Below are positions 28,351-61,529 of a DNA stretch of 64,000 bases, piece after piece. The first letter of the stretch is position 1. The number at the start of each line of letters is the position of its first letter. The notes under the pieces are model-generated. The model was not told the origin of the DNA. It saw only the letters and a program-made list of their open reading frames with translations, and made no database searches. Origin of the DNA: Eledone cirrhosa (lineage: Eukaryota); contig OZ024754.1 of the NCBI GenBank assembly GCA_964016885.1, positions 27,528,001 to 27,592,000 of the forward strand, given 5' to 3'. A program made the translations under genes and the position numbers.

Positions 28351-28420
<70 letters not shown>

Positions 28421-28659
28421 TTTCTTTATTAAGGTTTTCATAAAGTAGACATTAAGGACAGTGCAGGACAATACAGGACGGTACAAATGGGCATTTCTGC
28501 GTGTAAAAAACAAAAACAGAGGATCTAACAAAAAATAACAATGAAAAATTGCCCAATAGGGGGGAGACTTCGGAGGTACATTTGTGGCGAAAGCCCAGTA
28601 AAAGGCCACAATGACCCTGACCACCAAGGCAAGTGCCCTCTCCCAGTTTTCCACCTTTA

Positions 28660-31600
28660 ATTTACAGATATATACTCAGAGTAGGCCCATTCACTCGGGT
28701 CATTCTTGCTTCTCTCACCCATCTTTCAACAAAATGCTGGGGAGAGCACTTCCCTCTCTACTCTGATTTTCCTTTTCAAATGAAATTTGAAAAAGTCAAT
28801 CAGAGCATCACCGAAGAGGTAAGTGCTCGTCTTCAGCCCTTTCAAACGTGTCCACCATACTATCTCTTTCACCATGGCCACCAGACAGATAAAAACTGCC
28901 TGTCCTTCCCGGCTAAAGGAGGAGGGCGGGCCAATCCTCACGATGGACTCAGATGATAGCCGGATCCGTCCTACACGCGACAGCAGGTGTTCGACATAAA
29001 CCCACAAGTCAGCAATTTTCGGACACTGGACGAGTGCGTGCAGGACGGTTTCGTCGCCCTGCGCGCATCTCGGACATGCCCGGCTGACGGCACCTCCATG
29101 CCTGTAGAGTTTATCCCGAACTGGCAAGGCTCCTCGGTAGCACTGCCAGGCCAGAGATTTCTGGAAGTTGTCCATAGGCCCTGGCCCGAAAGTTCTTCCG
29201 GGTTGATTTTCGTCGACGCCTAGAGTTTCCCCAAGTACGTCGTCGCTCTTCCCCTCCACTAATCCTCTATAGAACGCCGAGGTGGAATTTCCACCGATCA
29301 CATTGCCCTATTGGTCGAGGGCTGTGAGCGCCTGAAGACATTCCAGTCTCCAGGCGCTCCCTCTCTGTATTCCCTTGATCCAGGACTGCAGCTCCGTCAA
29401 GGAAACGAGCTGGGGAAATACGTGTCTAGCAAACGGCGACCACACCTGATCACCGTCGAGGAAGAGGTGGAGATGTCGTATCCTGAGCGCGTGCCTGCGC
29501 ATAATCAGCCACGGCATGCCCAGCCCTCCACGTAGCGGGTGTTGACAACAGATGGACCGCCTGACCATCGGAGCGCGTCCCTTCCACAAAAAGCGAAAGA
29601 GCAAACACTCCAGCGCAGTCAGTCGAGGCTTAGGACAAGGTACAACGGTCAGGCGGTAGCAGATGACAGACACGATGTACGCGTTAGCCACCTCCGCTCG
29701 ACCTTTCAGGGATAGCTTCCTCTCCGCCCATTTCTGGGTGAGAGAAGCCACCCTGCTCGTCACCTCGTCCCAGTTTTTGTCCGTCTGGAGGTCCGGACCG
29801 AACCAGACCCCTAGCAATTTAACCGGTCCGTCCGTCCAGCGTCCGACGACGCTGTTGGACGGCATGGACCTGCCTCTCCAGGTGCCTAGCTGCAGGCCCA
29901 CTGACTTTTCCTGGTTGATCATTGCTCCTGTCACCGCTTCGTATTCTCTTAGTGTAGTGCCGATCGCCTCGATGTGTTTGGCGTTCAACACCACTACGGT
30001 GACATCGTCCGCATATGCTGACACGGATCTTCCGCATCCTAGTTCGCGCGGGATGCCCCTCAACGTCTCCAGTTTGTGCAGTAATGGCTCGAGAGTCAAT
30101 ACGTACAAGAGGGACGAGAGGGGACATCCTTGGCGGACCGAGCGCATGATGTTGAACGGTTCCGACAGGTGACCGTTCACTCTCACCACAGAGCAGATGT
30201 CGCTGTGCATGGCAGCGATCCAGCCTCTGAAGACGGGCCCAAAGCCAGCCGCCCTCAGGACTGCCGCTAGTTAACGATGGTCGACCCTATCGAAAGCTTT
30301 CGACTGATCTAAATTGATCAAGGACCCACTCGTACCAGGTTCCCTAGCTACCCTCTCTACGATGTATCGCATGAGGTGGAGGTTGTCGTGGATGGATCTG
30401 TCGGGAATGGCGCATGTCTGCGCCTCTCGCACCAGACGACCAACGACAAGCGCCAACCTCTTTGCTAGCACCTTGGCCAAAATCTTGAACTCTGTGTTTA
30501 GCAGAGTTATGGGCCGGAAATTATCTATGTTATCCCCCTTGTTCGGATCCTTTCTCAGCAGTGCCACCGCTCCTCGGCTCACAGAACTGGGAATTCTCCC
30601 GTTCTGTTGCCAGTTGCAGTAGACGTCCGCCAAGAGGCCTCCGAACAAGTCTGGCATCTGTACGTAAAGTTCATAGGGCAGACCATCCAAACCAGGCGAT
30701 TTACCCCTTGTGCAGCCAGTCATTGCCTCCCTTACTTCAGCGGCTGTTATCGGCTTTTCGCAACACTCCGCCTCAGTGGCCGAGAGCCGCGGCAGTCCGT
30801 CGAGGTAGACACTAAAGTCCATCCCTCGACCCGGCCCACCGCTTCCCCCGAACAGCTGAGCGAAGTGTCGCTGAAAAGCTTCACACATTTGCCCGGGATC
30901 GAGTAGCATGCGCCCGTCGTGGTCCACCAAAGACCGGATCGTGGCTTTTTGCCACGACGCGCCTGCGCCACTCGGGCCCATTGAACGGCTTTCGTCCCCT
31001 CGTGTCTGAGAGCACGCACCCTTGCTTTGACAACGCAGCCTTCGTGCTTTGCATTGAGAATTGGTCAAGGGCCAATTTCGCCGCAAGCACGTCGGTCGCA
31101 ATGCCTTTGCTAAGCGCCTCGTCTAATTTTCTAACTAGCTCTCCCTCTGCTCTATTTTTCTCTATTGCTAAAGCCTTACTAAACCTAATGGATTCTATTT
31201 TAATCGCTCTTTTCAGAGCAAACCACCACTTGTTGTTGACGATGATCCCCGTCAACGCACGCTTAACTAGTTCGCTAATCAGGTCTCTGTAGGCCTTGCG
31301 CGCTGGTAAGGACGCGTTTAGCTTCCAGTAGCCGGGTCCTCGTCTATGAAGCCTATCTGAGTCAAGCACACAGATCACGAATTTGTGGTCCGTGTAACTG
31401 ACTATCTTGAATTGTGGACAGCCTATGCTAGACCTATCTATTTCCCTACAAAATACTCTATCTAGATATGATCTGGATGACCCTACGCGATTTGTCCAAG
31501 TCCACATTGGCACATTCGGCAAATCCAATCGGTACCTGTCAGACAGTTCAAAACGCCTAAGCAGGTTGGTGAGGCTTTTGCACCCTCCACCCCTATCCGC

Positions 31601-31905
31601 TAATCCCACACAGTCCCAGCGTGCATCTAAGATCCCGTTCCAGTCGCCCACTAACACTAAAGAGCGGGACGTTCCAAGAAAGGTCTCCAGACGCTGGAAG
31701 AAATCAGGCCGCCCTGCTCCTGTCGGAGCATAGACGGCAACTAGCCTGAAAGCTTGCCCGTCTGCGCTGGTCACGTCCAGCACCACCAACTTACCTTCTG
31801 GGTCCAGGAAGATGGCCCGTATGGCGATATCCAAACCTCTCCGAAAAAGCACAGCAACTCCTCCCCCGATCCCGGACTGCTGGGAGATGCGTACGCATTG
31901 TAGCC
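28660..31905 (-). pseudogene. Tx1-like ORF2 (APE endonuclease-RT-zinc finger), disrupted
   Basis: Pieces 31852-30881, 31101-30271, 30210-29308 and 29301-28726 with GDWN, YTDH, QGCPLS, YADD, CPRC..H..C. Confidence 0.92.
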
Positions 31906-33460
31906 GGTGGTGTAGGTGATGGTGGTGTTGGGGTTAATGATGGTGATGGCGTTGGTGTTTGGGGTGATGGGGTTGGTGATGCTGGTGTGGATGGTGGCAT
32001 ATCTGTCCTAACTTTTTTGTTTGATAGTTTATTTGTTTCCCTCTGTTTTTTGTCTTGGGAGGGGGAGGAAAGAGAATTTTTTCTTTTTTGATTTCTTTTT
32101 TTTTTTCCTCATACCGTTTCCCACTCCTCGTCGTTACAATCTGTCTCCAGTTGCGATAAGCCGGGGAGTGGAAAATCCTCCACAGGCGTTGGTTTTGCTT
32201 GTTGCGTGGTGGATGGTGTAGGCGCTGGTGCTAGTTCTGGCGCGTTGGGTGGTGGTGGTGTTGGTTTTGCTACTGTTGCTGGGGATGTTGCTGTTACAGT
32301 TGCTTCTGTTGTTGCTGCTACAGTTGTTGCTGCCATCTCTGCTGCTGGTGGTGTTGATGGTTGAGTCACTGGGGTGGGTAAGAGAGGTGGCCTCAACCTT
32401 TTAGACTGAGGGCAGAAAGCCCTTAGGTGGGTTCCTTCACCACAAACGACACACCTAGGCCTTCTGCCCTCGACGATTACGGCTGCCGTCAGTGAGGTCT
32501 ATTACCTCTGGGATCTCCTCAATGCTTTTTTGGTCCGCTTGTATCAGGAGCTCCATCCCAGATCCGCACCAGTTCTCCTGCTTTTCTTTCGCTATTTCGA
32601 TTATCTTGGTGTTGGCTTCGATGCCGGCGAGGACGGCCGCTATTAGCCAGGGAATGTCGATGGCCGGTGGAACGTGGGTCACCCTGATCTTCACGAGTCT
32701 CTGGCCACAATAACTTGGGACGAGTGTGAAGTCGTCACTTCTTAATGGGGCCATGGGGTGTTCTCTGGCCGCCTGTGGTGTTTCAAAGAACACTCCACGG
32801 TTCAATATTTCTGCCCACGTCTGATGTGGGGTTTTTTTGCCCACACATGTCCCAAAGCTTTTTGGATTTGGGACTCGGATGCCCGTTCCACTCGGCGCGA
32901 TTTTATGCTAATCGTCCGATAAGACACGGTGCATAGGCGCCGATGCTCCATTTTATTAGGTGTGTGGAGGGGGAGGGGGAGGCTGACCCTGTACCTATCT
33001 TTCTTTACCATTTTGGGGGTTTCTAATTCCTCCTGAGTTACCTGGAATGCTTCGCACTGTTTTGCTACTCTGGCAAAACTCAGGGTGGTTTTCTTAATTT
33101 CATTGTTGCTGTTGGTGTTATCGTTACTTTTGTTATTGTTAATTTTAGTTTCAGTTGTGGTGGTGGTGGCGTCAGTGGTGTTCGGTGTGGAAGAGTTCAT
33201 TTTGGTTGAATTCATTTCGATATCACGAGTTAATTTATTTTTTTCTTTTGTTTCTGTTGTCGCTGTGGTGGTGGTGGGGGGGGGGCGGCTTTAACACCTG
33301 TAGTCATTGGTAATGGCGGGAAATGAATGTCTGCCTGAGACAAATTTAAAATATTGCTACTGCTTATATTTTTAGTGTTGGCAAACGTAGTAATATTTAC
33401 AATGGTGGTGTCGGTGTGAGGTGTTAGTTTGTGAGGAAGGAGTGAGTCTGAGTCGGCCAT
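31906..33460 (-). pseudogene. Tx1-like ORF1, disrupted
   Basis: Pieces 33475-33230, 33215-32802, 32844-32455 and 32396-32109, homologous to ORF1 of D and F. Confidence 0.85.
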
Positions 33461-33712
33461 GATTTTTGAAAGCAATTTTTTTTTGTTTGATAATTATGAA
33501 AAGTTTAAATTTTGGGCTCAAGGCCCCAATCTTTTTGAGTGTCCATTTCAGAAATCAATGTATGTGCACTTATATATAATTAACAATAAAAATTTTCCAT
33601 AAATGGCAATTTTAAACAACTGAAAATAACAAACCTTTGCGGAGCTCACGATGATACGTAGGTCGCCAATAATAATAATAATAATAATAATAATGATAAT
33701 AATAATAATAAT

Positions 33713-36700
33713 GATTTCATTTATTAGCCACAAGGGCCGACATGTAGGGGACAATACAAAGACAGGGACAGTGGGGGTTTACAATAAGGTCGAGTAAAAG
33801 TGCACAATGGCAAGACTAATTTAACAATGAAAGTATAAAATATAAAATAAACTATGCAAAATATAACAAAATAAATTTCCCGATAGGGGGTGGGCGACCC
33901 TGGGGTGATTCGGGTACCCCACCAATCCTGAACCACCCTGCGCTTCTAGGGCACCCAGGAGAGCACCCCTCTCCTCAAGTTAGCCAGCCTATAGGCGCAT
34001 GGTCAGAGTAGGCCCACTCACACGAGCCATTCTTGCCACATTCACCCACCTTTTAGCAAATGTACTGGGGGGAAGCACTTCTCTCTCCACCCTCACCCTC
34101 CTTTCCAGGTGAAACTTGAAGAAGTTGATGAGGGATTGGCCGAAGAGAAAAGTGTCTGTCTTTAGTCCTTTCAACCTGGTCCACCATATAATCTCTTTCG
34201 CAACTGCCACCAGACAGAGGAAAATGTCCTGCTCTTCCTGACCTATGGAAGGTGGCGGCTCGATCTTCACTATGGACTCGGCCGATAACTGGATTCGTTC
34301 CACACGCGACAGTAGCTGTTCGACATAACTCCACAAGTCAGTAATGCACGGACATTGAACAAGTGCGTGCAGAACGGTTTCGTCGTTCTGTGCGCATCTT
34401 GGGCAGGTCCGTCTGACAGCACTTCCGTGCCTGTAGAGTTTATCCCGAACCGGCAGTGCCCCCCGGTAGCACTGCCAAGCGAGGGATTTCTGGAAATTGT
34501 CCATCGTCCCCGGTTCAAAAGTCCTCCGGTACAGACTGGTCAGTTCGACTTCGTCGAGGCCTAAAGCTTCTCCGAGTGCGTCATCGCACTTGCCCACCAC
34601 TAATCCTCTATAAAACTCGAGAGTGGAAGTTCCACTGATCGCATTGCCCGCTTGGTAGAGGGCAGTGAGTGCCTGGCAACATTCCAGGTGCCAGTCACCC
34701 AGTCTCGGTCTCTTCTTGACCCAGGACTGCAGCTCAGTCAAAGAAATGAGCTGCGGAAAGGCCCGTCTGATAAACGGTGACCACACCTGTTCACCATTGA
34801 GGCAGAATATCTGGAGATGTCGCAGCCTCAACGCATGTTTGCGCATCATTAGCCACGGCATGCCCAGCCCTCCGTGTAGAGGGTGCTGGCAGCAGATGGA
34901 CCGCCTCACCAACGGAACTTGTCCCCTCCACAAGAATTTGAAGAGGAGCCGTTCCAACTTGACGAGGCGCGGACGGGGGCAAGGCACGACAGTTAGGCGG
35001 TAATAGATGACGGACGCGATGTACGCATTCGCCACCTCCGCGCGACCTTTCAGTGATAGCTTCCTCCCAGCCCATTTTTGGGTGAGACTGGCTACTCTGC
35101 TCGTTACCTCGTCCCAATTCTTTTCCACCTGGAGGTCTGGTCCGAACCAAACCCCGAGCAACTTTACTGGTCCGTCCGTCCAGCGCCCCACGACGCTGTT
35201 GGACGGCATGGGCTTGCCTCTCCAGGTTCCGAGCTGCAAGCCCACCGACTTTTCCGGGTTAAGTTTGGCTCCTGTCAACCTTTCATATTCTTTCAATAAG
35301 GTGCCGACCACCTCGATTTCTGAGGTGTTCGACACCATCACGGTGATGTCGTCCGCATAAGCCGACACCGCCTTTCCACGTCCCGGTTCGAGCGGGATGC
35401 CCTGCAACAGCTCCAGCTTCCGCAGTAAAGGCTCGAGAGTCAATACGTACATAAGGGAAGAGAGAGGGCACCCTTGACGGACCGATCGGGAGAGCCGAAA
35501 TGGTTCCGAGAGGTGGCCATTAACTTTGACCACCGAGCGTGTGCCGCTGTGCATTGCAAAGATCCAGCTTCTAAAGACAGGGCCGAAGCCAGCTGCTTTG
35601 AGGACAAACTCCAGATACCGATGGTCGACCCTATCGAATGCTTTCGATTGATCTAAATTGATCAGTGCCCCACCGAAGCCAGGTTTACACCCTACCCTCT
35701 CTATGATGTATCGCATGAGGTGGAGATTGTCGTGTATGGACCTGGCTGGGATTGCGCAAGTTTGCGCCTCCCCAACCAAATCCTCGACGACAAGCGCCAA
35801 TCTCTTTGCTAACACCTTGGCCAAAATCTTAAACTCTGTGTTGAGCAGAGTTATGGGCCTGAAGTTGTCTAATGTATCCCTCTTGTTCTCGTCTTTCCTT
35901 ATCACCGTCACCACTCCCCTGCTCACAGAACTGGGAATACTCCCATTCTGCTGCCAGTTACAGTAGAGTGCTTCAAGGAGTTCGGAGAACAAGTCTGGCA
36001 TATTTACGTAAAGCTCGTAGGGCAGGCCATCCAAGCCTGGTGACTTGCGCCTCATGCAGCCGACAAGGGCGTCCTGAATTTCGGCTGAAGTAATCGGCCT
36101 TTCGCAGCGCTCAGCGTCGACCGTCGAAATGCGCGGCAAGCCGTCAAAGTAGGGTCTGAAATCCGCTACTCTCTCTGACCCGCCACTCTCCCCGAACAAC
36201 CGAGCAAAGTGCTGGCGAAAGACCTCACACATCCGCTTGGAATCGCTTATCTCGTGTCCGTCTCGGTCCGCCAAAGACCGAATTGTGGTTTTATTACCAC
36301 GCTGCGCCTCCGCCACGCGGGCCCATCGAACAGCTTTAGTTCCCTCGTTTCTCAGCGCACGCGCCTTAGCTCTGATAATGCAACCTTCGTGTTTGGCATT
36401 GAAGAAATGGTCTAATGCCATTCTCGCCGCTAGCACGTCAGTTGCGATGCCACTACAAATAGCCTCGTCTAACTTATCTACCAGCTCCCCTCCTTTCTAT
36501 TTTTCTCTAACGCTAGTTCTTTGCTGAACTCTATCGAAGTTACTCTAATCTCTCTTTTGAGATCTCCCCACCATCTGTTGTTGATGATCCCCCTGTCAAC
36601 TTTTGCTTAACTAACTTATTGACTCGGTCCCTGTAAGCCTTACGTGCCGGAAATGACATGTTCAGCTTCCAGTAACCCGGTCCTAACCTACGCGTTTTAT

Positions 36701-37619
36701 TTAGGTCGACCGTACAGATCACAAATTTGTGATCTGAATAGGCGACCGTTTTAAAAAGTGGACAGCCCACACTATTTCTATCTATTTTCCTAATGAAGAT
36801 TCTGTCTATATACGATCTAGATGACCCCATTCGGTTGGTCCATGTCCATACTGGCACATTGGGGAAATCTAGTCGATACCTGTCAGACAGTTGGAACTGG
36901 CTGAGTAGGTGCTTGAGGCTTTTGCACCCCCCGCTCCTATCGGCTACTCCCACACAATCCCAGCGTGCGTCTAAGATGCCATTCCAGTCCCCCGCTAACA
37001 GTAAAGGGCGAGACGTACCCAGAAAGGTCTCCAGGCGCCTAAAGAAGTCAGGTCATCCGGCCCCTGTAGGGGCGTAGGCGGCCAGCAGTCTAAAGGCACC
37101 ACCTTCGCTACTGCTCACATCCAAGACCACCAACTTACCGTCCGGGTCCCGGAAGATCCACCTTACCTCGAGATCCAGTCCTTTCCTAAACAGCATGCCA
37201 CCCCACCCCCATTCCCGGCCTGCTAACAGATTCGAAGATCTGATAGTCGTCGAAAATGGGGGCTAGTGCACGCGTGTCGGAAATTCTGGTCTCGCTTACG
37301 GCAATCACATCCATTTCCAGCGACGGAGGTCGTTGAGCAGGCGACCCTGCTTCCATGGTGACCCCAGGCCGCGAACATTTAAACTTCCTACTCTTAATAT
37401 GGCCATATTGGTAAGCTAAGAGAGAGAGAGGGGAGGTTTACTTACCTCCCGGGTCTTGTGAAGGTCGGGTGGTTCGACCTCCATGGTTGGTGGGGTTACT
37501 TTTGGGAACCCCTTTAAAAGTCTTGATGTGGGTTTCACATTCGGGTTTCCCACGTCTTGAGGAAAGCTCTCTCGAATTTCTTTGAAAGAATTGAGTGACA
37601 TTCGGACCAGAAGCAAATC
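33713..37619 (-). mobile_element. L1/Tx1-like element B (divergent family), 5'-truncated within the end of ORF1
   Basis: ORF2 starts at ATG 37406 (MAILRVGSLNVRGLG) with frameshifts; 815-aa RT part 36436-33989 is open. (ATT)n on both sides. Confidence 0.92.
33989..37406 (-). pseudogene. Tx1-like ORF2: frameshifted APE domain, open RT/zinc finger
   Basis: KSPGLDG, FRPITLLN, DQSKAFDRV, QGCPLS, YADD, CPRC..H..C. Confidence 0.9.
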
Positions 37620-37674
<55 letters not shown>

Positions 37675-38480: not shown

Positions 38481-38630
38481 GTATATTATATTGTTGTAAT
38501 GCACTGGGTGATTGCTGGCCTTGTGCCTGGAGTGGAGACAATTATTAATAATTTCATTCTTAAGCCACGCAATGCTCACATTAAGGAACCACTCATGATA
38601 ATAACAATTTAAAAAAAAACAACAAAAAGA

Positions 38631-46057: not shown

Positions 46058-46091
46058 GTTGAAAAGGAGTGGAAAAAATGGGAAAGACCAC

Positions 46092-48420: not shown

Positions 48421-48435
48421 ATAATAATAATAATA

Positions 48436-48498
48436 ATTGTTTCTACTTTTGGCACAAGGCCAGTAATTATCCCAGTGTATTACTGGTACTTTATTTTA
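48436..48498 (-). mobile_element. SINE S1 3' fragment
   Basis: Reverse complement of the S1 tail (compare 48810-48872). Confidence 0.7.
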
Positions 48499-48608
48499 TA
48501 ATAATAATAATAATAATAATAATTATTATTATTATTATTATAAATATATATGTATATATATATGTATGTATATATGTGTATATATATATATGTATGTATA
48601 TATATATG

Positions 48609-48687
<79 letters not shown>

Positions 48688-48759
48688 CATATATATGTGT
48701 ATATGTATATGCATATATATACATGTATGACTTCCTAATTATGGCATTATATTACAGAA

Positions 48760-50130: not shown

Positions 50131-50192
<62 letters not shown>

Positions 50193-50205
50193 ATTATTAT
50201 TATTA

Positions 50206-51461
50206 CAGTTGCATTTATCTTGCTTTATGTTCATACGAGTTATCATCAAGTCACAACCAGTGACCTCAAGAGACAACAAGGTCCGCCATGTTCAAGAAAG
50301 AACATACATACTCAGACATGCATCTTTAGTGTTGTTTCCTGGGATTTGCGATAAGTAATCATTAGACCCCTTAGGTATCATTCCCAGAGCGCCTACAACC
50401 ACTGGTATTGTTTTAGTTCTCAATTTCCACATTTTACCAATTTCTATCTCCAGGTCCTTATACTTGCTCAATTTTTCAAATGTTTTTATAGATACATTCT
50501 TGTCTATTGGAACAGACATATCAATTAGCAGGCATACCCTCTTTTTAAAGTCCTTCAATATTATATCAGGTCTATTTGCATCTATTTTTCGGTCTGTTTG
50601 GATGCTAAAGTTCCACAAGATTGAGATGTGATCTTTTTCAAGTATGGGAGGTGGTTGATGCTCCCACCAATTCTTTTGATGGGGCAGGTCAAAATGCTTA
50701 CACATTATCCAATGTATGTATTGTGCAGCTCTGTCATGCCTGTTTAGGTATTCGGTTGGAGCTATAGGACTGCACATTGAAATTATATGGTCAATGGTCT
50801 CTGGTTGTTTTTTGCATACACGGCATAATGGGCTGCATCCATTTTTTATTATGTTGGCTTGGTAATTTTTTGTTGGCAGACACTGATCTTGTGCTGATAT
50901 AATCAGTCCTTCAGTCTCCGATTTCAGTCCAGAGGATGCCAACCACTGATGGGTTAAAGTTTTGTCAACATCAGCATTGTTAGCTCGCTCTGGGTATTTT
51001 CCATACAGAGGCTTTTCTTGCCATTTCTTAGCCAGTTTCTGTAGCAGTTCTTTCTGTGCAGTTACTTTTACCTGCTTTGGTTTTTCTGTGTTTTCCATTT
51101 CAGCAGTAAATGGGACTTCTGAAATTTGTAGTCCATTACTGTATCTTTGTGCATCTTTTGTAATGAAATATGATCTTTTGATGCTTTCGTGTTTCAAAAC
51201 GAGTTTGATCATCCAATCATGTGATTCCCTTAGATATGTAGATAATCCAATTGTTGCAGTTTTCAACGCAATGTCTAACTGGATTAACCAACGTCCTCCT
51301 TCTTTCCTAGGGAGATATATTCTATCTATATCTGCCCAAGGGTGATGTATTCTGTGCATGGTTAAGAATTTTCGGATTTTTGTATCGAGCCTACGGATCT
51401 CTGTGCTTGATCAGTTGATGACGTTGTAACTGTAGGTTACTACTGGTATGGCAAGCGTGTT
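50206..51461 (-). mobile_element. 5'-truncated copy of Dong-like family C
   Basis: Near-identical to ~41243-42583, with an ~90-bp deletion over the stop codon. (TAA)n on both flanks in element sense. Confidence 0.92.
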
Positions 51462-51495
51462 TATTATTATTATTATTATTATTGTTATTGTTATT

Positions 51496-54400
51496 CCTTG
51501 AATCTCAGTCATTGATGTTGGTTAACTGGAAAGTCCGTTGGATTGAATATCGAGCCACTACCTGCAGCCTCAGATATTCAGGACGTATCGGAGGGTTCTT
51601 GCTGTTCCAAGCAAGCATGCCTTTTGAAGCGTTCCAAAAAGCGTGAAGGGGCCGATTTTCTTTAACCATCCCTGGAAACTTTTGGAGATAGTCCCCAGTG
51701 CGCCTATGACAATCGGGATCACTTTGACTTCATGGCAGTTCCAAATCCTTTTCACCTCCCACTTTAGGTCCTGGTATCGGTTAATTTTCTCCCTCTCCTT
51801 CTCTTGCACTCTCGTGTCGAACGGGCAGGCCACATCCACAATCAGGCACGATCTTTTTTCTTTGTCCACAACCACCAGGTCAGGTCTATTGTGTTCCAGT
51901 TTTTTGTCCGTCTGTATCCTAAAATCCCACAGCACCTTCACCTGATTGTTCTCCATCACCGCCTCTGGCCTATGCTCATACCATTTCTCAGAATGTGGTA
52001 GATTGTTTACTTTGCACAGGTGCCAGTGGATCACCCTGCCCATCACATCGTGTTTCCAGCCCTTATAGTGGGTCTGGGCTAGGTGTTTACACTCGGACAC
52101 AATGTGAGCCACAGTCTCCTCTCTCTCTCCACATATCCTGCACAGTGGGCTGGCCTCCTCCTTGTAGATATGGTGCTTCAACCACTTCGTTTTGAGGGCC
52201 TGCTCCTGCGCAGCCATTAGCATTCCTTCTGTAGCCTTTTTGAGGTCTCCTCTTCTCAACCAGTTCCATGTCTGTGGATCTCTAAATTCAGTTTTCTCAA
52301 AGAAGGTACTATGAAGGGGTTTTCCCTTAAGGCTGCTCTTCCTCCTTGATGTTATTTCCTCCCTGGACATCCCCTGGCCTACTGTCCCCTCCTTCAGTAC
52401 AGCTCTGAGCATTGGCTCCTTACTATAGGTCACGTATTTGTATAGGTTGTTTTTCTCCATCTGAACACAGTCCTCTATGCTGATAAGACCTCTTCCACCC
52501 TCAGATCTCCTTAGGTAGAGTCTATCGACATCACTCCTCTTGTGGAACATGTTGTAGATAGTCAATAGCTTCCTAGTCTTCCTATCCATTTCTTTCTGTT
52601 CAGCAACATTCCATCTCAGAATTCCCGCACTGTACCTAATAATAGACACAGCTCGGGAATTTACTGCGCTTATGGCATTTCTGCTGTTCAGATGTGACTT
52701 CAATACGCTCCTTACTCTCCGAATGTATTCAGTTCTTAACAATTCCTTCATTTTTTTGTTCTTTATGCCATCAGCCTCCAGAACGCCCAAATACTTGTAT
52801 CCTTCCTCAGAGTCAATTTCCTTTATCATCTCACCTGTTGGTATCTGGATCCCGTTACTTCTGCTCAACCTACCCCTCTTCATCACAATGACTCCACATT
52901 TACCAATACCAAACTGCATACATATATCACTGCTGAAAATACGGACAGTGTCAACAAGCACATCCAACTCCTTCTCACTTTTCCCGAAGAGCTTAAGATC
53001 GTCCATGAAGAGGAGGTGATTGATGGTAAGCTCTCCCCTTCCCAACTTGTATCCTGCTCTCACTTTTCGCAGCATAATGGTCAAGGGCATCAGGGCAAGG
53101 ACAAACAACAGAGAGGACAGGCTATCTCCCTGGAAGATACCTCTCTTGATCTTCACGCTTCCCAAGGATACTCCAGTTGATGTCAACTCTGTCTCCCAGG
53201 ACCCCATACTCCTGCCTAGCAACTGTCTGATGTTATCCGCCACCCTGAAGATCTCCAGGCTTTTGGTGATCCAGGAATGAGGCACCATGTCAAATGCCTT
53301 TCTGTAGTCTATCCATCCCATGGCAAGATCAGTGTGTCTCCTCCTGCAATTCCCCATTACCATCTTATCAATAAGCAACTGGTCCTTTGTACCACGTGAC
53401 TTCTTTCGGCATCCTTTCTGTTCGTCCGGTAACAAGTTGTTTGTGTGGAGGTGGTGGTAGATTTCCTCAGACACAATGCTCGTCAACAGTTTCCACATTA
53501 CGGGCAGACATGTGATAGGTCTATAGTTGGTAGCATCATTACCCTTGATTCGGTCTTTCATTATCAGAACTGTGGTACCTTTTGTCAACCACTCTGGCAC
53601 CTCACCCGACACCAAGCAGTCATTGAACATGGCCGTCAGCTTCGGGTGGAGGGATGTTAGATGTTTAATCCAATACCCCTGCACACCATCTGGGCCTGGC
53701 GATTTCCAGTTGGTTAGATTTTTGGCTTGTCCCTTAAGAGTTTCAACTGTGATACTCAAATCAGTCTGTTGCTGTGCCTGCTCACCGATCTCCCTCTGTA
53801 CTGTCTCAATCCACCCTGCCTGGGCATTGTGTCTAACATCCTGCTCCCATATTCCTCTCCAGAATGTTTTAGTTTGCTCCGCCCCAGGGATCAAGTCGTT
53901 GCCTCTTTCTTTGCCCTCAAGCTGTCCAAACAGCATCTTCTGGTTGTTGTCGAACATGCGGTTCTGTTTATACTGACTGACTCTGTTCTCGTATCGCCTG
54001 ATTTTTGCACTCTTTGCTACAATGCGTTGCTTCAATTCCTCTATGATAATATTTAGCTTTTTACTCCTAGTTTTGTATTTTATTTCCAGTCTATTTTTAG
54101 TGCCTATGTTTTTTAGTGTCCCATTCAGTAGTGACTCAAGCTTTCCTATGTCATTTCTCATTTCCCCGATTTGCCCACTCAGTCGCTTCTTCCACCACGG
54201 CTCTGCTCTTTCTTGTCTGTTGTTTCCTCTCGCTTTTATACCAAGTAGTTTCCTCACCGTATTTGCTGTTGCTCTGAGGATATTGTTGCACTGGTGAAGG
54301 CTCCTCGCCTCAAGGTATGGGATGACTTTGTTTACCTTAGCTGTTGTTTCTTTTAACTTTTTCCTGTCTACAAATCTTAGGTTCATAGGTCTCCCACTAT

Positions 54401-55405
54401 CATTGTTCAATTCATCTACCACTAAATTTAGGATGTCAACCGAATCTTGTCCTAGCCCGTCAGCATTCATCTCCTCAGTGGCCGTATCTCTGTTCCAGGT
54501 ATTATTTATCTCAGTACTCAGATCATTGTCTGCTTCGGGTGGTTCCTCCGTTCTCAGGACCTCCTCACCTTCATTTCCCACCGGCTCGCTTGTCTGGCAT
54601 ACTACACCCGCCATCTCCAAGCCATTCTCTCTGCTCAGTTCCTCCAGTTCCAGCTCGCTTATCCACCCATTAGTTCTTATTACCCGAGCCTGCCCGGCCA
54701 ATTTTTGTTCATCTAATTTAAATAAACCAATCTCGTTCCAGATGTTATGCATCCGTCTCCTGTAGCCCCTCTCCTTGGGGTTACTTTTCAGGTAGCATTG
54801 CATAACAGTTCTATTCAATTCTTTCGTCCAGTTGGTTCTGGCCCCTTTCCTTCCTCTCCTTCCTCCAACATCAGCAGTATTTGGTTGACAGTCAGGTTCC
54901 TGCTGCTGAGCCAGGGGGCACCTGTTGGGTGAGAGTCTGTCACATGACGTTCTAGTCTCCATTTCACCGTTATTCGAACTGTTTATGTTCGATATTTAAA
55001 CACTCTTATCGAGGATTGGCGAATGTATGTTTACATAGCCATCTGTGGATCCGCCATCCCACTTGGCCCTTGTGTGGCATTATCACCACGCTGTATACGA
55101 ACACACATAAACAAACAAACACACAGGCAGAAAGGGCCCCAGAAATGAATAAGCATAAGTTTCATTGTAATGTAGTGTTCGAATGTCTGACTTAGTTTTA
55201 TTTTTTTAAGTTTTACTTTTTCCCCCCTCTTCTCTGTCCGTCCGCCTGCTTCTCTCTTCATTCTTATTTTCTTTACGTTTTTGGGGTTTCTTTTTTTTGT
55301 TTTTGTTTTTCTCGTTTTTTGCTGTTGTTGCTGTGCTGCTTTGGTTTTGTTGTTTGTTTTTTCTTTTTTCTTTTGGGTCTATCTATATATTTTGATGCCT
55401 TCCTC

Positions 55406-55409
<4 letters not shown>
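51496..55409 (-). mobile_element. R4/Dong-like non-LTR retrotransposon E, full length
   Basis: Intact single ORF; (TAA)n on both flanks in element sense. Confidence 0.94.
51570..54962 (-). CDS. R4/Dong-like protein: N-terminal domain, reverse transcriptase, CCHC finger, REL endonuclease (1130 aa)
   Basis: WKSPGPDG, NYRPITCL, IDYRKAFD, QGDSLS, FMDD, YKYLG, CRIC..H..C, KHD, RPD..D..EK..RY. Confidence 0.95.
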   Translation of the reverse strand: METRTSCDRLSPNRCPLAQQQEPDCQPNTADVGGRRGRKGARTNWTKELNRTVMQCYLKSNPKERGYRRRMHNIWNEIGLFKLDEQKLAGQARVIRTNGWISELELEELSRENGLEMAGVVCQTSEPVGNEGEEVLRTEEPPEADNDLSTEINNTWNRDTATEEMNADGLGQDSVDILNLVVDELNNDSGRPMNLRFVDRKKLKETTAKVNKVIPYLEARSLHQCNNILRATANTVRKLLGIKARGNNRQERAEPWWKKRLSGQIGEMRNDIGKLESLLNGTLKNIGTKNRLEIKYKTRSKKLNIIIEELKQRIVAKSAKIRRYENRVSQYKQNRMFDNNQKMLFGQLEGKERGNDLIPGAEQTKTFWRGIWEQDVRHNAQAGWIETVQREIGEQAQQQTDLSITVETLKGQAKNLTNWKSPGPDGVQGYWIKHLTSLHPKLTAMFNDCLVSGEVPEWLTKGTTVLIMKDRIKGNDATNYRPITCLPVMWKLLTSIVSEEIYHHLHTNNLLPDEQKGCRKKSRGTKDQLLIDKMVMGNCRRRHTDLAMGWIDYRKAFDMVPHSWITKSLEIFRVADNIRQLLGRSMGSWETELTSTGVSLGSVKIKRGIFQGDSLSSLLFVLALMPLTIMLRKVRAGYKLGRGELTINHLLFMDDLKLFGKSEKELDVLVDTVRIFSSDICMQFGIGKCGVIVMKRGRLSRSNGIQIPTGEMIKEIDSEEGYKYLGVLEADGIKNKKMKELLRTEYIRRVRSVLKSHLNSRNAISAVNSRAVSIIRYSAGILRWNVAEQKEMDRKTRKLLTIYNMFHKRSDVDRLYLRRSEGGRGLISIEDCVQMEKNNLYKYVTYSKEPMLRAVLKEGTVGQGMSREEITSRRKSSLKGKPLHSTFFEKTEFRDPQTWNWLRRGDLKKATEGMLMAAQEQALKTKWLKHHIYKEEASPLCRICGEREETVAHIVSECKHLAQTHYKGWKHDVMGRVIHWHLCKVNNLPHSEKWYEHRPEAVMENNQVKVLWDFRIQTDKKLEHNRPDLVVVDKEKRSCLIVDVACPFDTRVQEKEREKINRYQDLKWEVKRIWNCHEVKVIPIVIGALGTISKSFQGWLKKIGPFTLFGTLQKACLLGTARTLRYVLNI

Positions 55410-55444
<35 letters not shown>

Positions 55445-55657
55445 GAATGCCATGGTTGACGGAGGCTCGGCTCTGTAAGGTATAGTAATTTTTAACCGTT
55501 AAAACAATTGTAAATTGTTTAAAACTTGAACCAAATTGTTGATAAAGACACCCTCCTCCTCGTGAGAGGGGTCTTTCTGTCCGTTATTTGGCCCTTCGGG
55601 GTTAAATAGCCAGTTATTGGGGTTTTGTACCCAAAATTTCATTTTAAACAAAAAAAC

Positions 55658-57757
55658 ATGGCTACCAAAAAAAAAAAATTTCACACGTCACTCCCACTCA
55701 TTCCGTCTTCTTCTTCCTCAATCATCACTACAGGAGAGAGAAGATTGTCTCTCTCCCTCCCTTCTTTAAATGTGTCTCTCTCCCTACCTTCTCTTTCGCA
55801 AGCGACGAAAGAAAAGAAAAGTCTCGTGCAAAGCGTGCAAGGTTTCTCCACGACGACGACGACAGCGACGAAACAGGTGTGCGGGAAATACGAAAACCCA
55901 GTTCATTCGTCTGACGTCAGGAATAATAGCAGTAGCAGCCGTAATAACAACAGCAACAGTGACAATGAAAACAACAGTAGCAGCCGCAACAGCATCACCA
56001 GCAGCATAAACAACAACAGCATTAGCAGCAGCAACACCAACAACAACCACAGCAACAGCGGCGGAGGCAGTAGTCGTAGTACCTGCAGCAACAACAAAAG
56101 TACCAGCAGCTCTGACGACAACAACAACAGCAGAGAAAAACCAATCTCATTTGCAGGTATTGCGAAAAACCTGGAAACAATCCTCATAACAAATGAGGAA
56201 TTAGAGGAAGCGAAGAAGATGGTGACAAAGAACGGACACCGAGCAATCTGCAAGGCAGCGAAAAATTTTTTCGAAACCCAAGAGCACTGTACGGTCACGT
56301 ACCGTACAGTAAGTACAAAATCCCGTAGGGTGGAAAGAGCCACAGAGGCCCAAATACAAAAAGCCTTGGGGTCTGTGTGGCAGAGGAAAACGCACATCAC
56401 CCGAGGCAAAAAATACGCCACCGTAGACGTACTTTTTGCCACACCCCAGGAGGCAAAGGCCCAATCAGTAGTGACCCTAAGGAGCGAGGAAATGGTGTTG
56501 GTGCCCTCCTACTGCGGGCAAAAAATTGTGAGGGTCAAACTGACCCACGTCCCCCCCGGAATGACCCCTTCTTGGCTGGCCGCGTCTGTCCTCGTCGGAA
56601 TCGAGGACAAAACAACTGTACTGCAAGTACAGAAAAAAGTAAGAGAAGATTGGGTCGGCTCCTCCATTGAGATGCTAATCCAAACCAACCAGGAGTGCAT
56701 CGAAGCTATCCCGGATGTGATAGACTTCGATAACGGCACTCAACTGCCCATAAGTGTTGAGGGCAAACGCCCGAAATGCTTTCGCTGTGGATCGAAGACT
56801 CACCTCAGGGCCTTCTGCAACGAGAAGACCCTGAGAAAGGAGAAAACCCCCCTCCTCCCGAATCCGGTTCCACGGCTACCAGCAACAGGACAAGCGGCAA
56901 CCAGGAACGATAGGTCCGTGGCACCCATACCCACTCCACGGAAATCAAAGACAGCAGCAGCAGTGGAAATATTAACAACAACAACAGCAATACCAAATGC
57001 AGCTGCAACAGAGACTCCAGTGCAAACATCACCAACAACAACAAGTGAAAGAGTGGAGCTGGTACCCCTCCCCGACCTCACAGAATCAGACATGGAGTGT
57101 GAGGTGGGAGAGGGATGGCAAAAGGTCTCAAGAAGGCACAAACGCAGAAGCAGCGCATCGTCGCCTTTGAAAAGGGAGGAAAGAAATGAGAAAAGGGTAA
57201 AGTCTACTGCAAAGAGACCCACAGCAGCAACACCACCAACACCATCACCACCCACACCAGCACCACCATCACCACCGGCGACAACCCCACCGCCAACAAC
57301 ACCTTCAACACCACCACCACAAGCACCAACATCGCAAACACAACAACAAAACACACACACCCAGCAACAACGACAAGAAAATAGCAGAACCACACCCCAC
57401 CCCCAGAAAAACAAATGCACGGCAATAAACACACACAACAAGAAACTAATGACTTACATAATTGAACACACAGACATTTCACAACAGGACTACATAATAC
57501 CAGCACCAATCAAAACGCCAACTAACATAAGACTGCTAAAAATAGCACAGAAACAATACACAAACATTAAAACGAAATTCCCCAACGCAGTTGGTGATTT
57601 CAGGGACCTAGGAGGAACCATTAATCGAAGAGTATATTCAGACATTCTCTTAGAAGAGCCGACGACCAGCCGAAGGGACGATTCAACGGTCCCTTCACCA
57701 GACGATCAAGTGAAAAGGGATGTAAAAACCATCCCTCCTCTACCAAAAATACGGTAA
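55658..57757 (+). CDS. Tx1-like ORF1 nucleic-acid-binding protein (S/N-rich N-terminus, globular centre, CCHC knuckle, P/T-rich tail)
   Basis: First ATG at 55658 in a 710-codon frame; CFRCGSKTHLRAFC. Confidence 0.88.
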   Translation: MATKKKKFHTSLPLIPSSSSSIITTGERRLSLSLPSLNVSLSLPSLSQATKEKKSLVQSVQGFSTTTTTATKQVCGKYENPVHSSDVRNNSSSSRNNNSNSDNENNSSSRNSITSSINNNSISSSNTNNNHSNSGGGSSRSTCSNNKSTSSSDDNNNSREKPISFAGIAKNLETILITNEELEEAKKMVTKNGHRAICKAAKNFFETQEHCTVTYRTVSTKSRRVERATEAQIQKALGSVWQRKTHITRGKKYATVDVLFATPQEAKAQSVVTLRSEEMVLVPSYCGQKIVRVKLTHVPPGMTPSWLAASVLVGIEDKTTVLQVQKKVREDWVGSSIEMLIQTNQECIEAIPDVIDFDNGTQLPISVEGKRPKCFRCGSKTHLRAFCNEKTLRKEKTPLLPNPVPRLPATGQAATRNDRSVAPIPTPRKSKTAAAVEILTTTTAIPNAAATETPVQTSPTTTSERVELVPLPDLTESDMECEVGEGWQKVSRRHKRRSSASSPLKREERNEKRVKSTAKRPTAATPPTPSPPTPAPPSPPATTPPPTTPSTPPPQAPTSQTQQQNTHTQQQRQENSRTTPHPQKNKCTAINTHNKKLMTYIIEHTDISQQDYIIPAPIKTPTNIRLLKIAQKQYTNIKTKFPNAVGDFRDLGGTINRRVYSDILLEEPTTSRRDDSTVPSPDDQVKRDVKTIPPLPKIR

Positions 57758-57759
57758 GT
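57752..57759 (+). promoter_or_regulatory. Candidate splice donor / U1-binding site CG|GTAAGT overlapping the ORF1 stop
   Basis: Perfect intronic consensus, positionally conserved in D (46095, -) and B (37445, -). Confidence 0.45.
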
Positions 57760-57792
57760 GGTCTTTCCCATCTTTTCCACTCTATTTTAAAC

Positions 57793-60700
57793 ATGACCTC
57801 ACTCAGAATAGGCAGCATAAATGCGCGTGGCTTGGGGTCGTCATGGAAGCAGGGTCACCTGCTCAACGACCTCAGGTCACTAAACATAGATGTAGTGGCC
57901 ATCAGCGAGACCAGAATCTCCGAAGCACGGGCCTTCGCACCGATCTTCGGCGGCTACGATGTGTACGCATCTCCCAGCCGTCCTGGATCGGGTGGAGGAG
58001 TTGCTGTGCTTTTTCGGAGAGGTTTGGATCTCGCCATACGGGCCATCTTCCTGGACCCAGAGGGTAAGCTGGTGGTGCTGGACGTGACCAGCGGAGACGG
58101 GCAAGCTTTCAGGCTAGTGGCCGTCTATGCCCCGACAGGAGCAGGGCGGCCTGATTTCTTCCGGCGTCTGGAGACCTTTCTTGGAACGTCGCGCTCTTTA
58201 GTGTTAGTGGGCGACTGGAACGGGATCTTAGATGCACGCTGGGACTGTGTGGGATTAGCGGATAGGGGTGGAGGGTGCAAGAGCCTCACCAACCTGCTCA
58301 GGCGTTTTGAACTGTCTGACAGGTACCGATTGGATTTCCCGAATGTGCCAATGTGGACTTGGACAAACCGCATAGGGTCATCCAGATCATATCTAGATAG
58401 AGTATTTTGTAGGGAAATAGATAGGTCTAGCATAGGCTGTCCACAATTCAAGATAGTCAGCTACACGGACCACAAATTCGTGATCTGTGTGCTTGACTTA
58501 GATAGGCTTCATAGACGAGGACCCGGCTACTGGAAGCTAAACGCGTCCTTACCAGCGCGCAAGGCCTACAGAGACCGGATTAGCGAACTAGTTAAGCGGG
58601 CGTTGACGGGGGCCATCGTCAACAACAAGTGGTGGTTTGCTCTGAAAAGAGCGATTAGAATAGAATCGATTAGGTTTAGTAAGGCTTTAGCAATAGAGAA
58701 AAATAGAGCAGAGGGAGAACTAGTTAGAAAATTAGACGAGGCGCTTAGCAAAGGCATTGCGACCGACGTGCTTGCGGCGAAATTGGCCCTTGACCAATTC
58801 TTCAATGCAAAGCACGAAGGCTGCGTTGTCAGAGCTAGGGTGCGTGCTCTCAGACACGAGGGGACGAAAGCCGTTCAATGGGCCCGAGTGGCGGAGGCGC
58901 GTCGTGGCAACAAAGCCACGATCCGGTCTTTGGTGGACCACGACGGGCGCATGCTACTCGATCCCGGGCAAATGTGTGAAGCTTTTCAGCGACACTTCGC
59001 TCAGCTGTTCGGGGGCAGCGGGGGGCCGGGTAGAGGGATGGACTTTAGTGTCTACCTCGACGGGCTGCCGCGGCTCTCGGCCACTGAGGCGAGGTGTTGC
59101 GAAAAGCCGATAACAGCCGCTGAAGTACGGGAGGCAATGACTGGCTGCACAAGGGGTAAATCGCCTGGTTTGGATGGTCTGCCCTATGAACTTTACGTAC
59201 AGATGCCAGACTTGTTCGGAGGCCTCTTGGCGGACGTCTACTGCAACTGGCAACAGAACGGGAGAATTCCCAGTTCTGTGAGCCGAGGAGCGGTGGCACT
59301 GCTGAGAAAGGATCCGAACAAGGGGGATAACATAGACAATTTCCGGCCCATAACTCTGCTAAACACAGAGTTTAAGATTTTGGCCAAGGTGCTAGCAAAG
59401 AGGTTGGCGCTTGTCGTTGGTGGTCTGGTGGGAGAGGCGCAGACATGCGCCATTCCCGACAGATCCATCCACGACAACCTCCACCTCATGCGATACATCG
59501 TAGAGAGGGTAGCTAGGGAACCTGGCACGGGTGGGTCCTTGATCAATTTAGATCAGTCGAAAGCTTTCGATAGGGTCGACCATCGTTACCTAGCGGCAGT
59601 CCTGAGGGCGGCTGGCTTTGGGCCCGTCTTCAGAGGCTGGATCGCTGCCATGCACAGCGACATCTGCTCTGTGGTGAGAGTGAACGGTCACCTGTCGGAA
59701 CCGTTCAACATCATGCGCTCGGTCCGCCAAGGATGTCCCCTCTCGTCCCTCTTGTACGTATTGACTCTCGAGCCATTACTGCACAAACTGGAGACGTTGA
59801 GGGGAGTCCCGCGCGAACTAGGATGCGGAAGATCCGTGTCAGCATATGCGGACGATGTCACCGTAGTGGTGTCGAACGCCAAACACATCGAGGCGATCGG
59901 CACTACACTAAGAGAATACGAAGCGGTGACAGGAGCAATGATCAACCAGGAAAAGTCAGTGGGCCTGCAGCTCGGCACCTGGAGAGGCAGGTCCATGCCG
60001 TCCAACAGCGTCGTCGGGCGCTGGACGGACGGACCGGTTAAATTGCTAGGGGTCTGGTTCGGTCCGGACCTCCAGACGGACAAAAACTGGGACGAGGTGA
60101 CGAGCAGGGTGGCTTCTCTCACCCAGAAATGGGCGGAGAGGAAGCTATCCCTGAAAGGTCGAGCGGAGGTGGCTAACGCGTACATCGCGTCTGTCATCTG
60201 CTACCGCCTAACCGTCGTACCTTGTCCTAAGCCTCGCCTGACTGCGCTGGAGCGTTTGCTCTTTCGCTTTTTGTGGAAGGGACGTGCTCCGATGGTCAGG
60301 CGGTCCATCTGTTGTCAACACCCGCTACGTGGAGGGCTGGGCATGCCGTGGCTGATGATGCGCAGGCACGCGCTCAGGCTACGACATCTCCACCTCTTCC
60401 TCGACGGTGATCAGGTGTGGTCGCCGTTTGCTAGACGCGTTTTTCCCCAGCTCGTTTCCTTGACGGAGCTGCAGTCCTGGGTCAAGCGAAGACCGAGAGG
60501 GAGCGCCTGGAGACTGGAATGTCTTCAGGCGCTCACAGCCCTCGACCAATCGGGCAATGTGATCGGTGGAAACTCCACCTCGGCGTTCTATAGAGGATTA
60601 GTGGAGGGGAAGAGCGACGACGTACTTGGGGAAACTCTAGGCGTCGACGAAAATCAACTAGCCAATCTCTTCGGAAGAACTTTCGGGCCAGGGCCTATGG

Positions 60701-61212
60701 ACAACTTCCAGAAATCTCTGGCCTGGCAGTGCTACCGAGGAGCCTTGCCAGTTCGGGATAAACTCTACAGGCATGGAGGTGCCGTCAGCCGGGCATGTCC
60801 GAGATGCGCGCAGGGCGACGAAACCGTCCTGCACGCACTCGTCCAGTGTCCGAAAATTGCTGACTTGTGGGTTTATGTCGAACACCTGCTGTCGCGTTTA
60901 GGACGGATCCAGCTATCATCTGAGTCTATCGTGAGGATTGCCCCGCCCTCCTCCTTTAGCCGGGAAGGGCAGGCAGTTTTTATCTGTCTGGTGGCCATGG
61001 CGAAAGAGATAGTATGGTGGACACGTTTGAAAGGGCTGAAGACGAGCACTTACCTCTTCGGTGATGCTCTGATTGACTTTTTCAAATTTCATTTGAAAAG
61101 GAAAATCAGAGTAGAAAAGGAAGTGCTCTCTTCCCAGCATTTTGTTGAAAGATGGGTGAGAGAAGCAAGAATGGCCCGAGTGAATGGGCCGACTCTGAGT
61201 ATATATCTGTAA
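57793..61212 (+). CDS. Tx1-like ORF2: APE endonuclease + reverse transcriptase + C-terminal zinc finger (1139 aa)
   Basis: SINARGL, SET, VYAP, GDWN, SYLDR, YTDH, PGYWKLN, QGCPLS, YADD, CPRCAQGDETVLHALVQC. Confidence 0.96.
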   Translation: MTSLRIGSINARGLGSSWKQGHLLNDLRSLNIDVVAISETRISEARAFAPIFGGYDVYASPSRPGSGGGVAVLFRRGLDLAIRAIFLDPEGKLVVLDVTSGDGQAFRLVAVYAPTGAGRPDFFRRLETFLGTSRSLVLVGDWNGILDARWDCVGLADRGGGCKSLTNLLRRFELSDRYRLDFPNVPMWTWTNRIGSSRSYLDRVFCREIDRSSIGCPQFKIVSYTDHKFVICVLDLDRLHRRGPGYWKLNASLPARKAYRDRISELVKRALTGAIVNNKWWFALKRAIRIESIRFSKALAIEKNRAEGELVRKLDEALSKGIATDVLAAKLALDQFFNAKHEGCVVRARVRALRHEGTKAVQWARVAEARRGNKATIRSLVDHDGRMLLDPGQMCEAFQRHFAQLFGGSGGPGRGMDFSVYLDGLPRLSATEARCCEKPITAAEVREAMTGCTRGKSPGLDGLPYELYVQMPDLFGGLLADVYCNWQQNGRIPSSVSRGAVALLRKDPNKGDNIDNFRPITLLNTEFKILAKVLAKRLALVVGGLVGEAQTCAIPDRSIHDNLHLMRYIVERVAREPGTGGSLINLDQSKAFDRVDHRYLAAVLRAAGFGPVFRGWIAAMHSDICSVVRVNGHLSEPFNIMRSVRQGCPLSSLLYVLTLEPLLHKLETLRGVPRELGCGRSVSAYADDVTVVVSNAKHIEAIGTTLREYEAVTGAMINQEKSVGLQLGTWRGRSMPSNSVVGRWTDGPVKLLGVWFGPDLQTDKNWDEVTSRVASLTQKWAERKLSLKGRAEVANAYIASVICYRLTVVPCPKPRLTALERLLFRFLWKGRAPMVRRSICCQHPLRGGLGMPWLMMRRHALRLRHLHLFLDGDQVWSPFARRVFPQLVSLTELQSWVKRRPRGSAWRLECLQALTALDQSGNVIGGNSTSAFYRGLVEGKSDDVLGETLGVDENQLANLFGRTFGPGPMDNFQKSLAWQCYRGALPVRDKLYRHGGAVSRACPRCAQGDETVLHALVQCPKIADLWVYVEHLLSRLGRIQLSSESIVRIAPPSSFSREGQAVFICLVAMAKEIVWWTRLKGLKTSTYLFGDALIDFFKFHLKRKIRVEKEVLSSQHFVERWVREARMARVNGPTLSIYL

Positions 61213-61472
61213 ACTAAAGGTGGAAAACTGGGAGAGGGCACTTGCCTTGGTGGTCAGGGTCATTGTGGCTTTTTACTGGGCTTTCTCCACAAATGTCCCT
61301 CCGAAGTCTCCCCCCTATTGGGGAATTTTTCATTGTTATTTTCATTGTTATTTTTGTTACATCCTCTGTTTTTGTTTTTTTACACGCAGAAATGCCCATT
61401 TGTACCGTCCTGCATTGTCCTGCACTGTCCTTAATGTCTACTTTATGTAAACCCTTGTGGTTAATAAAGAAA

Positions 61473-61528
<56 letters not shown>

Positions 61529-61529
61529 A

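Follow-up and report, generated by a model that had tools for sequence, protein, structure and literature searches.

In a 64,000-nucleotide stretch of DNA from the octopod Eledone cirrhosa (contig OZ024754.1, positions 27,528,001 to 27,592,000; the whole stretch that was analysed is here termed the window), two kinds of long interspersed nuclear element (LINE), with unrelated nucleases, share one simple microsatellite and read it in opposite polarity. It is probable, though far from certain, that a Tx1-like family inserts there in (TAA)n/(TTA)n, in a fixed orientation opposite to that of Dong-like elements, with its own apurinic/apyrimidinic endonuclease (APE) likely making the choice by nicking the (TAA)n strand. 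The window, animal DNA rich in A and T, has numerous long (TA)n runs and not a single N, and its perfect TAA/TTA tracts of at least five units number 12, every one of them within positions 28352-61526; a LINE end adjoins 10 of these and a truncated short interspersed nuclear element (SINE) the other two. Self-comparison and translated searches gave four APE-type copies, designated A, B, D and F, and five pieces of the type with a restriction-like endonuclease (RLE), including copies C and E, and the arrays are three: A-B, C-D-fragment and fragment-E-F. The frames of F and E are intact, C has a single frameshift, and A, B and D have stops, frameshifts or deletions. Coordinates are in Table 1.

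How uniform is the polarity? On the sense strand of each element the perfect TTA units at the 5′ and 3′ sides number 8 and 22 for A, 18 and 5 for B, 4 and 6 for D, and 11 and 17 for F, and TAA is found at neither end of any of these four Tx1-like copies. The Dong-like pieces read (TAA)n: C has six units at its 3′ side, its 5′ side being A-rich and tract-free; E has 11 at its 5′ side and, at its 3′ side, a degenerate AAC/AAT run leading into seven; the C-family fragment has those same seven units, E's tail, at its 5′ side and six at its 3′ side; and the fragment starting at 48300 has five at its 3′ side and (GAA)n at its 5′ side, with four TAA units beyond. A fragment at 11905 has a decayed tail, with at most three perfect units, and no tract at its 5′ end. 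A preliminary description of this DNA had reported the opposite polarity of the two clades, together with a tail-to-tail pair (C/D) and a head-to-head pair (E/F), and reading of the junctions agrees with it; the general rule for flanks that it drew survives as far as polarity is concerned, the exceptions being the 5′ side of the 11905 fragment and that of C, which the description itself had given as only A-rich.

Is the repeat a target, or merely a tail that the element brings with it? As the 3′ tracts may be tails, and as A's 5′ tract is the tail of B and hence not independent, the independent evidence resides in the head-side tracts that are no neighbour's tail, of which there are only three (marked as such in Table 1). 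So while tracts at both ends of A, B, D and F, as had been described, are indeed present, they are fewer as independent observations. The three meet three different 5′ junction sequences: the type of A and D, that of F, and that of B, which has no ORF1 (the first open reading frame). On the 5′ side of all four Tx1-like copies, perfect (TTA)n extends over 12-54 nt, compared with 0.046% of background positions that have such a tract (30 of 65,674 strand-positions preceded, in Tx1 polarity, by 12 nt of perfect tract, from a scan of the 32,837 non-LINE bases of the window, itself selected post hoc, from which tracts that were hit were excluded). To judge from the existence of two subfamilies at 76% identity and from the differing flanks, the copies represent separate insertion events. 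B begins 214 nt before ORF2 and, since ORF1 is missing, is probably 5′-truncated. With three 5′-side tracts that are no neighbour's tail and one probable 5′ truncation, the junction sequences mark the repeat at this locus as a target and not just a tail, and to this locus the support for the earlier suggestion extends. In the window all four Tx1 copies are flanked by the target; the criterion by which a Tx1 family is termed target-specific, that the target flanks >20% of copies (PMC4494074; statements from the literature, here and below, draw on the accessible portions of the cited papers), is a family-wide one. The only (TTC)n run near the Tx1 copies is beyond D's 5′ tract, the flanks themselves being (TTA)n.

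ORF2 of F matches the Pfam families Exo_endo_phos, RVT_1 and zf-RVT, i.e., APE, reverse transcriptase (RT) and a C-terminal zinc finger, and the element has the two-ORF layout. RRM folds and a CCHC knuckle are features of Tx1 ORF1. For F ORF1 Pfam gave no match; its structure model (pLDDT 76) has two predicted RRM folds and matches tandem-RRM proteins (best E 2.5e-4), and the CCHC motif is present in six of seven aligned ORF1 stretches, that of D stopping short of it. With phmmer the RT of F scores 232-259 bits to all four proteins named YTX2 or TX1, the names being automatic annotations, versus 127-129 bits to human L1 ORF2p. In a quick RT tree of 70 rows, with no row from Repbase and none from mammalian L1, F, B, P0001 and an Argonauta protein form one branch (SH-aLRT 100) whose sister is a branch of invertebrate sequences (100); the grouping of F and B with vertebrate proteins named as Tx1 has an unstarred SH-aLRT of 93 and takes in a third, unnamed group. 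Among named proteins, one from Argonauta hians (73%) is nearest to the RT of F, and a short stretch matches an Octopus sinensis protein. The catalytic motifs of the APE domain of F are, on alignment, in register with those of the human L1 endonuclease, and the best fold matches of its predicted model are L1 endonuclease structures (TM 0.78-0.80), with hairpin-exchange variants mentioned in PDB titles among them. In the L1-type endonuclease family a hairpin loop sets specificity; between F and B that loop hardly differs, and in both it is two residues shorter than in sister families, which may be a weak hint of nuclease specificity. Comparison of F with its neighbours brought another feature to light: its 5′ untranslated region (UTR) and ORF1 (55443-57760) are 44-64% identical to those of A (31907-33669) and D (46140-48265), its ORF2 and 3′ UTR are 91-99% identical to theirs, and the switch is at the ORF1/ORF2 boundary, a pattern which on its face is that of an ORF1 swap between Tx1 subfamilies.

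The RLE-type copies C and E each have one ORF with RT, CCHC and a PD..D..K nuclease, with APE absent, and the CCHC and nuclease motifs are conserved in C, E and an outside locus, L146. The best PDB matches of the RLE-type elements are R2 proteins (102 bits versus 50 for L1), and C and E, at 41% protein identity, are two families. They are putative R4/Dong members by layout and target rather than by a tree with named references. The clade assignments of the preliminary description, APE-RT-zinc finger with an RRM/CCHC ORF1 for one and RT-CCHC-restriction-like nuclease for the other, are thus retained. Rfam gave nothing at gathering score in the window or in three outside loci, and upstream of C there were only chance matches, with no ribozyme to fix its 5′ end.

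What of relatives elsewhere? A scan of a genome collection yielded 44 loci, 40 of them from a single record, G001, which is titled as a bacterium and whose contigs (L001-L039 and L041) hold animal-type Tx1 copies and Dong-like fragments. These contigs are evidently animal DNA and look like host contamination. Their Tx1 copies, the nearest relatives for which flanks could be read, are ~41% identical to F, are in head-to-tail arrays with units of ~6.4-6.8 kb and array-specific short spacers, and end shortly after the poly(A) signal without a tail; of 39 distinct 3′ junctions, many of them near-copies within arrays, none has three TTA or TAA units within the 40 nt that follow. A 240-nt stretch between the copies was considered as a target and dropped, as terminal copies also have it, so that it is 3′ UTR. 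In the tree the G001 families are on the sister branch of F (SH-aLRT 100). Because these sisters, from one other animal, have neither tail nor repeat target, neither would be ancestral and the (TTA)n preference was probably gained in the octopod branch. In line with the independent origin proposed earlier, the gain also looks independent of the known Tx1 cases, in that F is in a separate invertebrate branch and its sisters are without a repeat target. Among metagenome and other distant relatives (22-39% identical), any tract of four units was present at 5 of 84 loci, without pattern; viral contigs had no relative, only two pattern matches without LINE sequence; and the octopod junction patterns gave one chance match and no match in prokaryote genomes. 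For the Dong-like elements, 16 outside hit clusters, from G001 and three other loci, were inspected over 200 nt from the 5′ end, and sense (TAA)n was there in 6 and (TTA)n in none. A compound (TAA)n(GAA)n run is ahead of a 5′-truncated Dong-like fragment both at window positions 48266-48299 and in a G001 locus (L047, 10735-10810), and one G001 contig (C16; L045, L046) has an 8.16-kb tandem unit, present three times, in which a decayed Dong-like piece accompanies a long (TAA)n tract.

F itself is wholly or partly present in 13 of 20 listed sequencing runs (7 studies), nine of them with at least half of its words. Four of the 20 were assembled on F: run X9 gave 52,278 contigs, 11,986 of them at ≥99%, and run X3 gave 66,190; run X12 tiles nearly all of F; and in run X14 F was absent, with low-complexity matches only. 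Summed read depth, which is not a copy number, is several times higher over ORF2 than over ORF1, and this fits many truncated or ORF1-swapped copies. Contigs of run X9 join the 3′ end of F back to 61380 (61380-61470), a sign that the last 95 nt may be duplicated in rare copies of F.

At the 3′ terminus of F, D and B is a small hairpin (4-bp stem, conserved loop of five bases), which is found again at the end of the G001 Tx1 families and of the window's SINE-like repeat, a repeat that may resemble CORE/OR2; in A the hairpin is partly lost. In an alignment anchored by hand on the loop, and comprising 14 of 19 rows (D, S48.4, L023 and L001 were dropped as repeats, and S20.7, with a broken stem whose inclusion would lower the paired share, was also omitted), 92.9% of cells pair, both sides change in three of four pairs, and none of 500 shuffles attains that share of paired cells. 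Local alignment of SINE tails gave p <0.05 in 7 of 32 comparisons with Tx1 ends and in 0 of 8 with Dong ends; with F and B specifically it was not significant (p 0.33 and 0.098, with one B comparison at 0.026), and end-anchored alignment gave p 0.014 and 0.0005. The resemblance suggests that the Tx1 lineage may mobilise the window's SINE. (TTA)n on both sides, in Tx1 polarity, is present at one of seven SINE copies, and the other six are without it.

By the established chemistry of target-primed reverse transcription, the primer for a copy that reads (TTA)n in the sense direction was the (TAA)n strand; for a Dong-like copy it was the (TTA)n strand. Use of the opposite strand, as previously claimed, thus holds for the primer strand, where it follows from that mode of insertion. 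In the scheme envisaged, the Tx1 APE would nick the (TAA)n strand inside the microsatellite, the 3′ end so exposed would prime reverse transcription of an RNA held through its predicted 3′ hairpin, and short pairing between tail and primer may assist. Since insertion within a tract leaves tract on either side, later copies of either clade could land there, and repeated landing would build mixed arrays of two or three, with their tail-to-tail and head-to-head pairs; that arrays were built in regenerated tract had been proposed before and is supported. The APE domain is favoured as chooser because it is intact, because Tx1 nucleases are known to set targets, as Tx1 families are to gain microsatellite targets (PMC4494074), and because annealing alone should accept short matches. 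A larger possibility, which we consider unlikely as a whole, is that the octopod Tx1 nuclease, whose earlier sites would have been unrelated ones like those of the sister families, switched recently to the (TAA)n strand and so converged on Dong's target from the opposite side, and that its lineage mobilises an abundant SINE whose ATT tails seed new tracts for both clades; in octopus genomes such a three-way loop would give rise to (AAT)n microsatellites as well as to mixed arrays of LINEs.

Could the tail, and not the nuclease, do the choosing? A relaxed nuclease may nick AT-rich DNA broadly, with only those nicks that pair with the RNA's (UUA)n tail being extended, so that polarity would reflect annealing. 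This is the main rival, and we think it distinctly less than probable without dismissing it. All four Tx1 copies have the tail in the same phase, and six of the seven SINE copies that share the hairpin finish with a short ATT run at a tract-free site, so the tail may be RNA-borne; repeat tails are known from other LINEs, e.g., TAA in the I element and TGTAA in UnaL2 (PMC3747384). However, annealing requires only a few bases and short matches would be expected at most insertions, yet four of four copies have at least 12 nt of perfect tract on the far side; moreover, in the sister Tx1 families the hairpin is present and a tail is not. Opposite polarity would also come about if Tx1 exploited breaks made in the tract by others, whether the second-strand cut of Dong-like elements, which presumably would fall on the opposite strand, or the fragility of the repeat; two of the three arrays do combine both clades, but F retains an intact APE and there is no Dong-like copy between the tracts of the A/B array, and we regard such hitchhiking as improbable. 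Alternatively, insertion may be broad and the cluster an unusual one, or contigs may have been joined through repeats. The window is a single one, picked as striking, and not even F is spanned by any listed read or contig; but a mis-join would still require a tract beside every 5′ end, the window is free of N and contains much longer simple repeats, and random insertion would almost never give three such junctions, so that this too is quite improbable.

The reading in which the Tx1 APE selects the (TAA)n strand has to be balanced by several points that weigh against it. It derives from a single locus with three independent head-side tracts, of which D's has only four units; the position of the nick and any target-site duplication are unreadable inside pure repeat; the alignment of B's leader with the ORF1 end of D and F is in register but scores no better than shuffled sequence (for F, 96 of 300 shuffles score as high); and confidence in the F APE model is <50 at the very hairpin loop (residues 193-197) that might bear on specificity. 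The G001 Dong-like regions were fetched for holding tracts, and so only their polarity is informative. Finally, the SINE with the same hairpin ends in a short ATT tail but has a 5′ tract in only one of seven copies, so that ATT tails do arise here without a tract target.

Every ingredient has precedent, and no new mechanism is opened; the feature is real, and its target probably one that is undescribed for a known kind of element. Tx1 targets written as (TC)n, (TTC)n and (TTCC)n/(TTTC)n are those of Kibi, Koshi and crocodilian elements (PMC4494074, PMC3812793), which like F are two-ORF APE elements of Tx1 type in a microsatellite. Going by the published descriptions of targets as written, the repeat of Kibi and Koshi is (TC)n or (TTC)n and here it is (TTA)n, one base from that of Koshi, and in the tree F belongs to an invertebrate branch that is separate from the vertebrate proteins named as Tx1. 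Dong of silkworm, mosquito and snail targets TAA (PMC3812793); C and E are similar to it in having one frame with RT, CCHC and restriction-like nuclease and in reading (TAA)n, and differ only in that two Dong-like families here share tracts with Tx1. In Octopus vulgaris both Dong-R4 (1,129 insertions) and L1-Tx1 (421) were recently active (PMC13282606, Table 1). Two precedents had been given too little weight in the preliminary description. Keno (Tx1, APE) and Utopia (NeSL, RLE) have parallel specificity for one site (PMC4640811), but that site is in the U2 snRNA gene, with identical 3′ flanks and the same orientation, unlike the microsatellite and the opposite orientations here. TRAS and SART build arrays in a single simple repeat, into which they insert in opposite orientations (PMC10088271), but both are of the R1 clade and the repeat is telomeric, whereas here the nucleases are unrelated and the microsatellite interstitial. 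SINEU likely borrows crocodilian Tx1 machinery (PMC4494074); the candidate partner here is instead the window's SINE-like repeat, and the link a short hairpin. In the accessible portions of the literature, including PMC9115989, PMC8967140, PMC4758252, PMC11481361, PMC8869645 and PMC5035012, no Tx1 family that targets (ATT)n or (TTA)n was found, and literature similarly accessible yielded neither a target analysis of cephalopod Tx1 nor the combination of unrelated nucleases on opposite strands of one microsatellite. That a Tx1 family with this target is already catalogued, e.g., in Repbase or Dfam, is in our judgement possible, if rather unlikely.

Were the nuclease to pick the site, a new target would join the Tx1 list, and a rare matched pair would be available for mapping specificity, an intact (TAA)n-preferring APE and its ~40% identical, intact sister APEs without the preference. 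It would account, too, for the way in which two LINE groups recently active in octopus accumulate in one abundant repeat and spare genes. The shared hairpin, for its part, would name a partner LINE for an octopus SINE.

Table 1. Features of the window, in order of position, with the 3′-terminal hairpin sites last
Feature	Position	Strand	Remarks
Old E-family fragment, 80% to E	11905..12563	+	Decayed tail, 5′ tract absent: exception
5′-truncated SINE-like repeat	28216..28351	+	End merges into first tract
(TAA)22 tract	28352..28417	.	3′ flank of A
Tx1-like copy A	28418..33669	-	5′ end same as D; deletion spanning ORF1/ORF2 boundary, frameshifts, 2 stops
(TAA)8 TGA (TAA)5 tract	33670..33711	.	Tail of B and 5′ flank of A
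Tx1-like copy B, second subfamily	33712..37620	-	76.6% DNA identity to F; 4 stops in APE region
(TAA)18 tract	37621..37674	.	5′ junction of B; independent head-side
Dong/R4-like copy C	~38600..42585	+	Frameshift near 40370; 5′ end approximate
(TAA)6 tract	42586..42603	.	C/D tail to tail
Tx1-like copy D	42604..48265	-	Ends full-length; internal deletions and frameshifts
(TAA)4 then (GAA)n	48266..48299 (TAA part 48266-48277)	.	Between heads of D and E-family fragment; independent head-side
E-family Dong-like fragment	48300..48419	+	5′-truncated and internally deleted
5′-truncated SINE (48438-48497)	48420..48540	-	(TTA)n on both sides, Tx1 polarity
(TTA)6 tract after (TA)27	50188..50205	.	3′ flank of C-family fragment
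C-family Dong-like fragment	50206..51460	-	5′-truncated, 97.5% to C
(TTA)7 and degenerate units	51461..51495	.	Tail of E and 5′ flank of C-family fragment
Dong/R4-like copy E	51496..55409	-	Single open frame, 1141 codons; RT, CCHC, restriction-like nuclease motifs
(TTA)11 tract	55410..55442	.	E/F head to head; independent head-side
Tx1-like copy F, intact	55443..61475	+	ORF1 55658-57757; ORF2 57793-61212; APE domain 57793-58521; 3′ hairpin near 61450-61462
(TTA)17 tract	61476..61526	.	3′ flank of F
3′-terminal hairpin sites	Window 61450-61462, 33726-33738, 48846-48858; L017 3690-3702

Three further features of the window deserve mention. An open frame directly past the 3′ tract of F (61527-62178), for which Pfam gave no significant match, may resemble a fragment of a Penelope GIY-YIG nuclease. 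Between the 5′ tract of B and a SINE fragment is an 820-nt stretch (37675-38495) with no self-match and no Rfam family, which may belong to an extended 5′ UTR of C or simply be unique DNA. Lastly, a short element that carries (TAA)4 close to its end is repeated at 2549-2728, 16805-17153, 18377-18582 and 25569-25753, within (TA)n runs and with inverted copies, and is possibly a miniature inverted-repeat transposable element.

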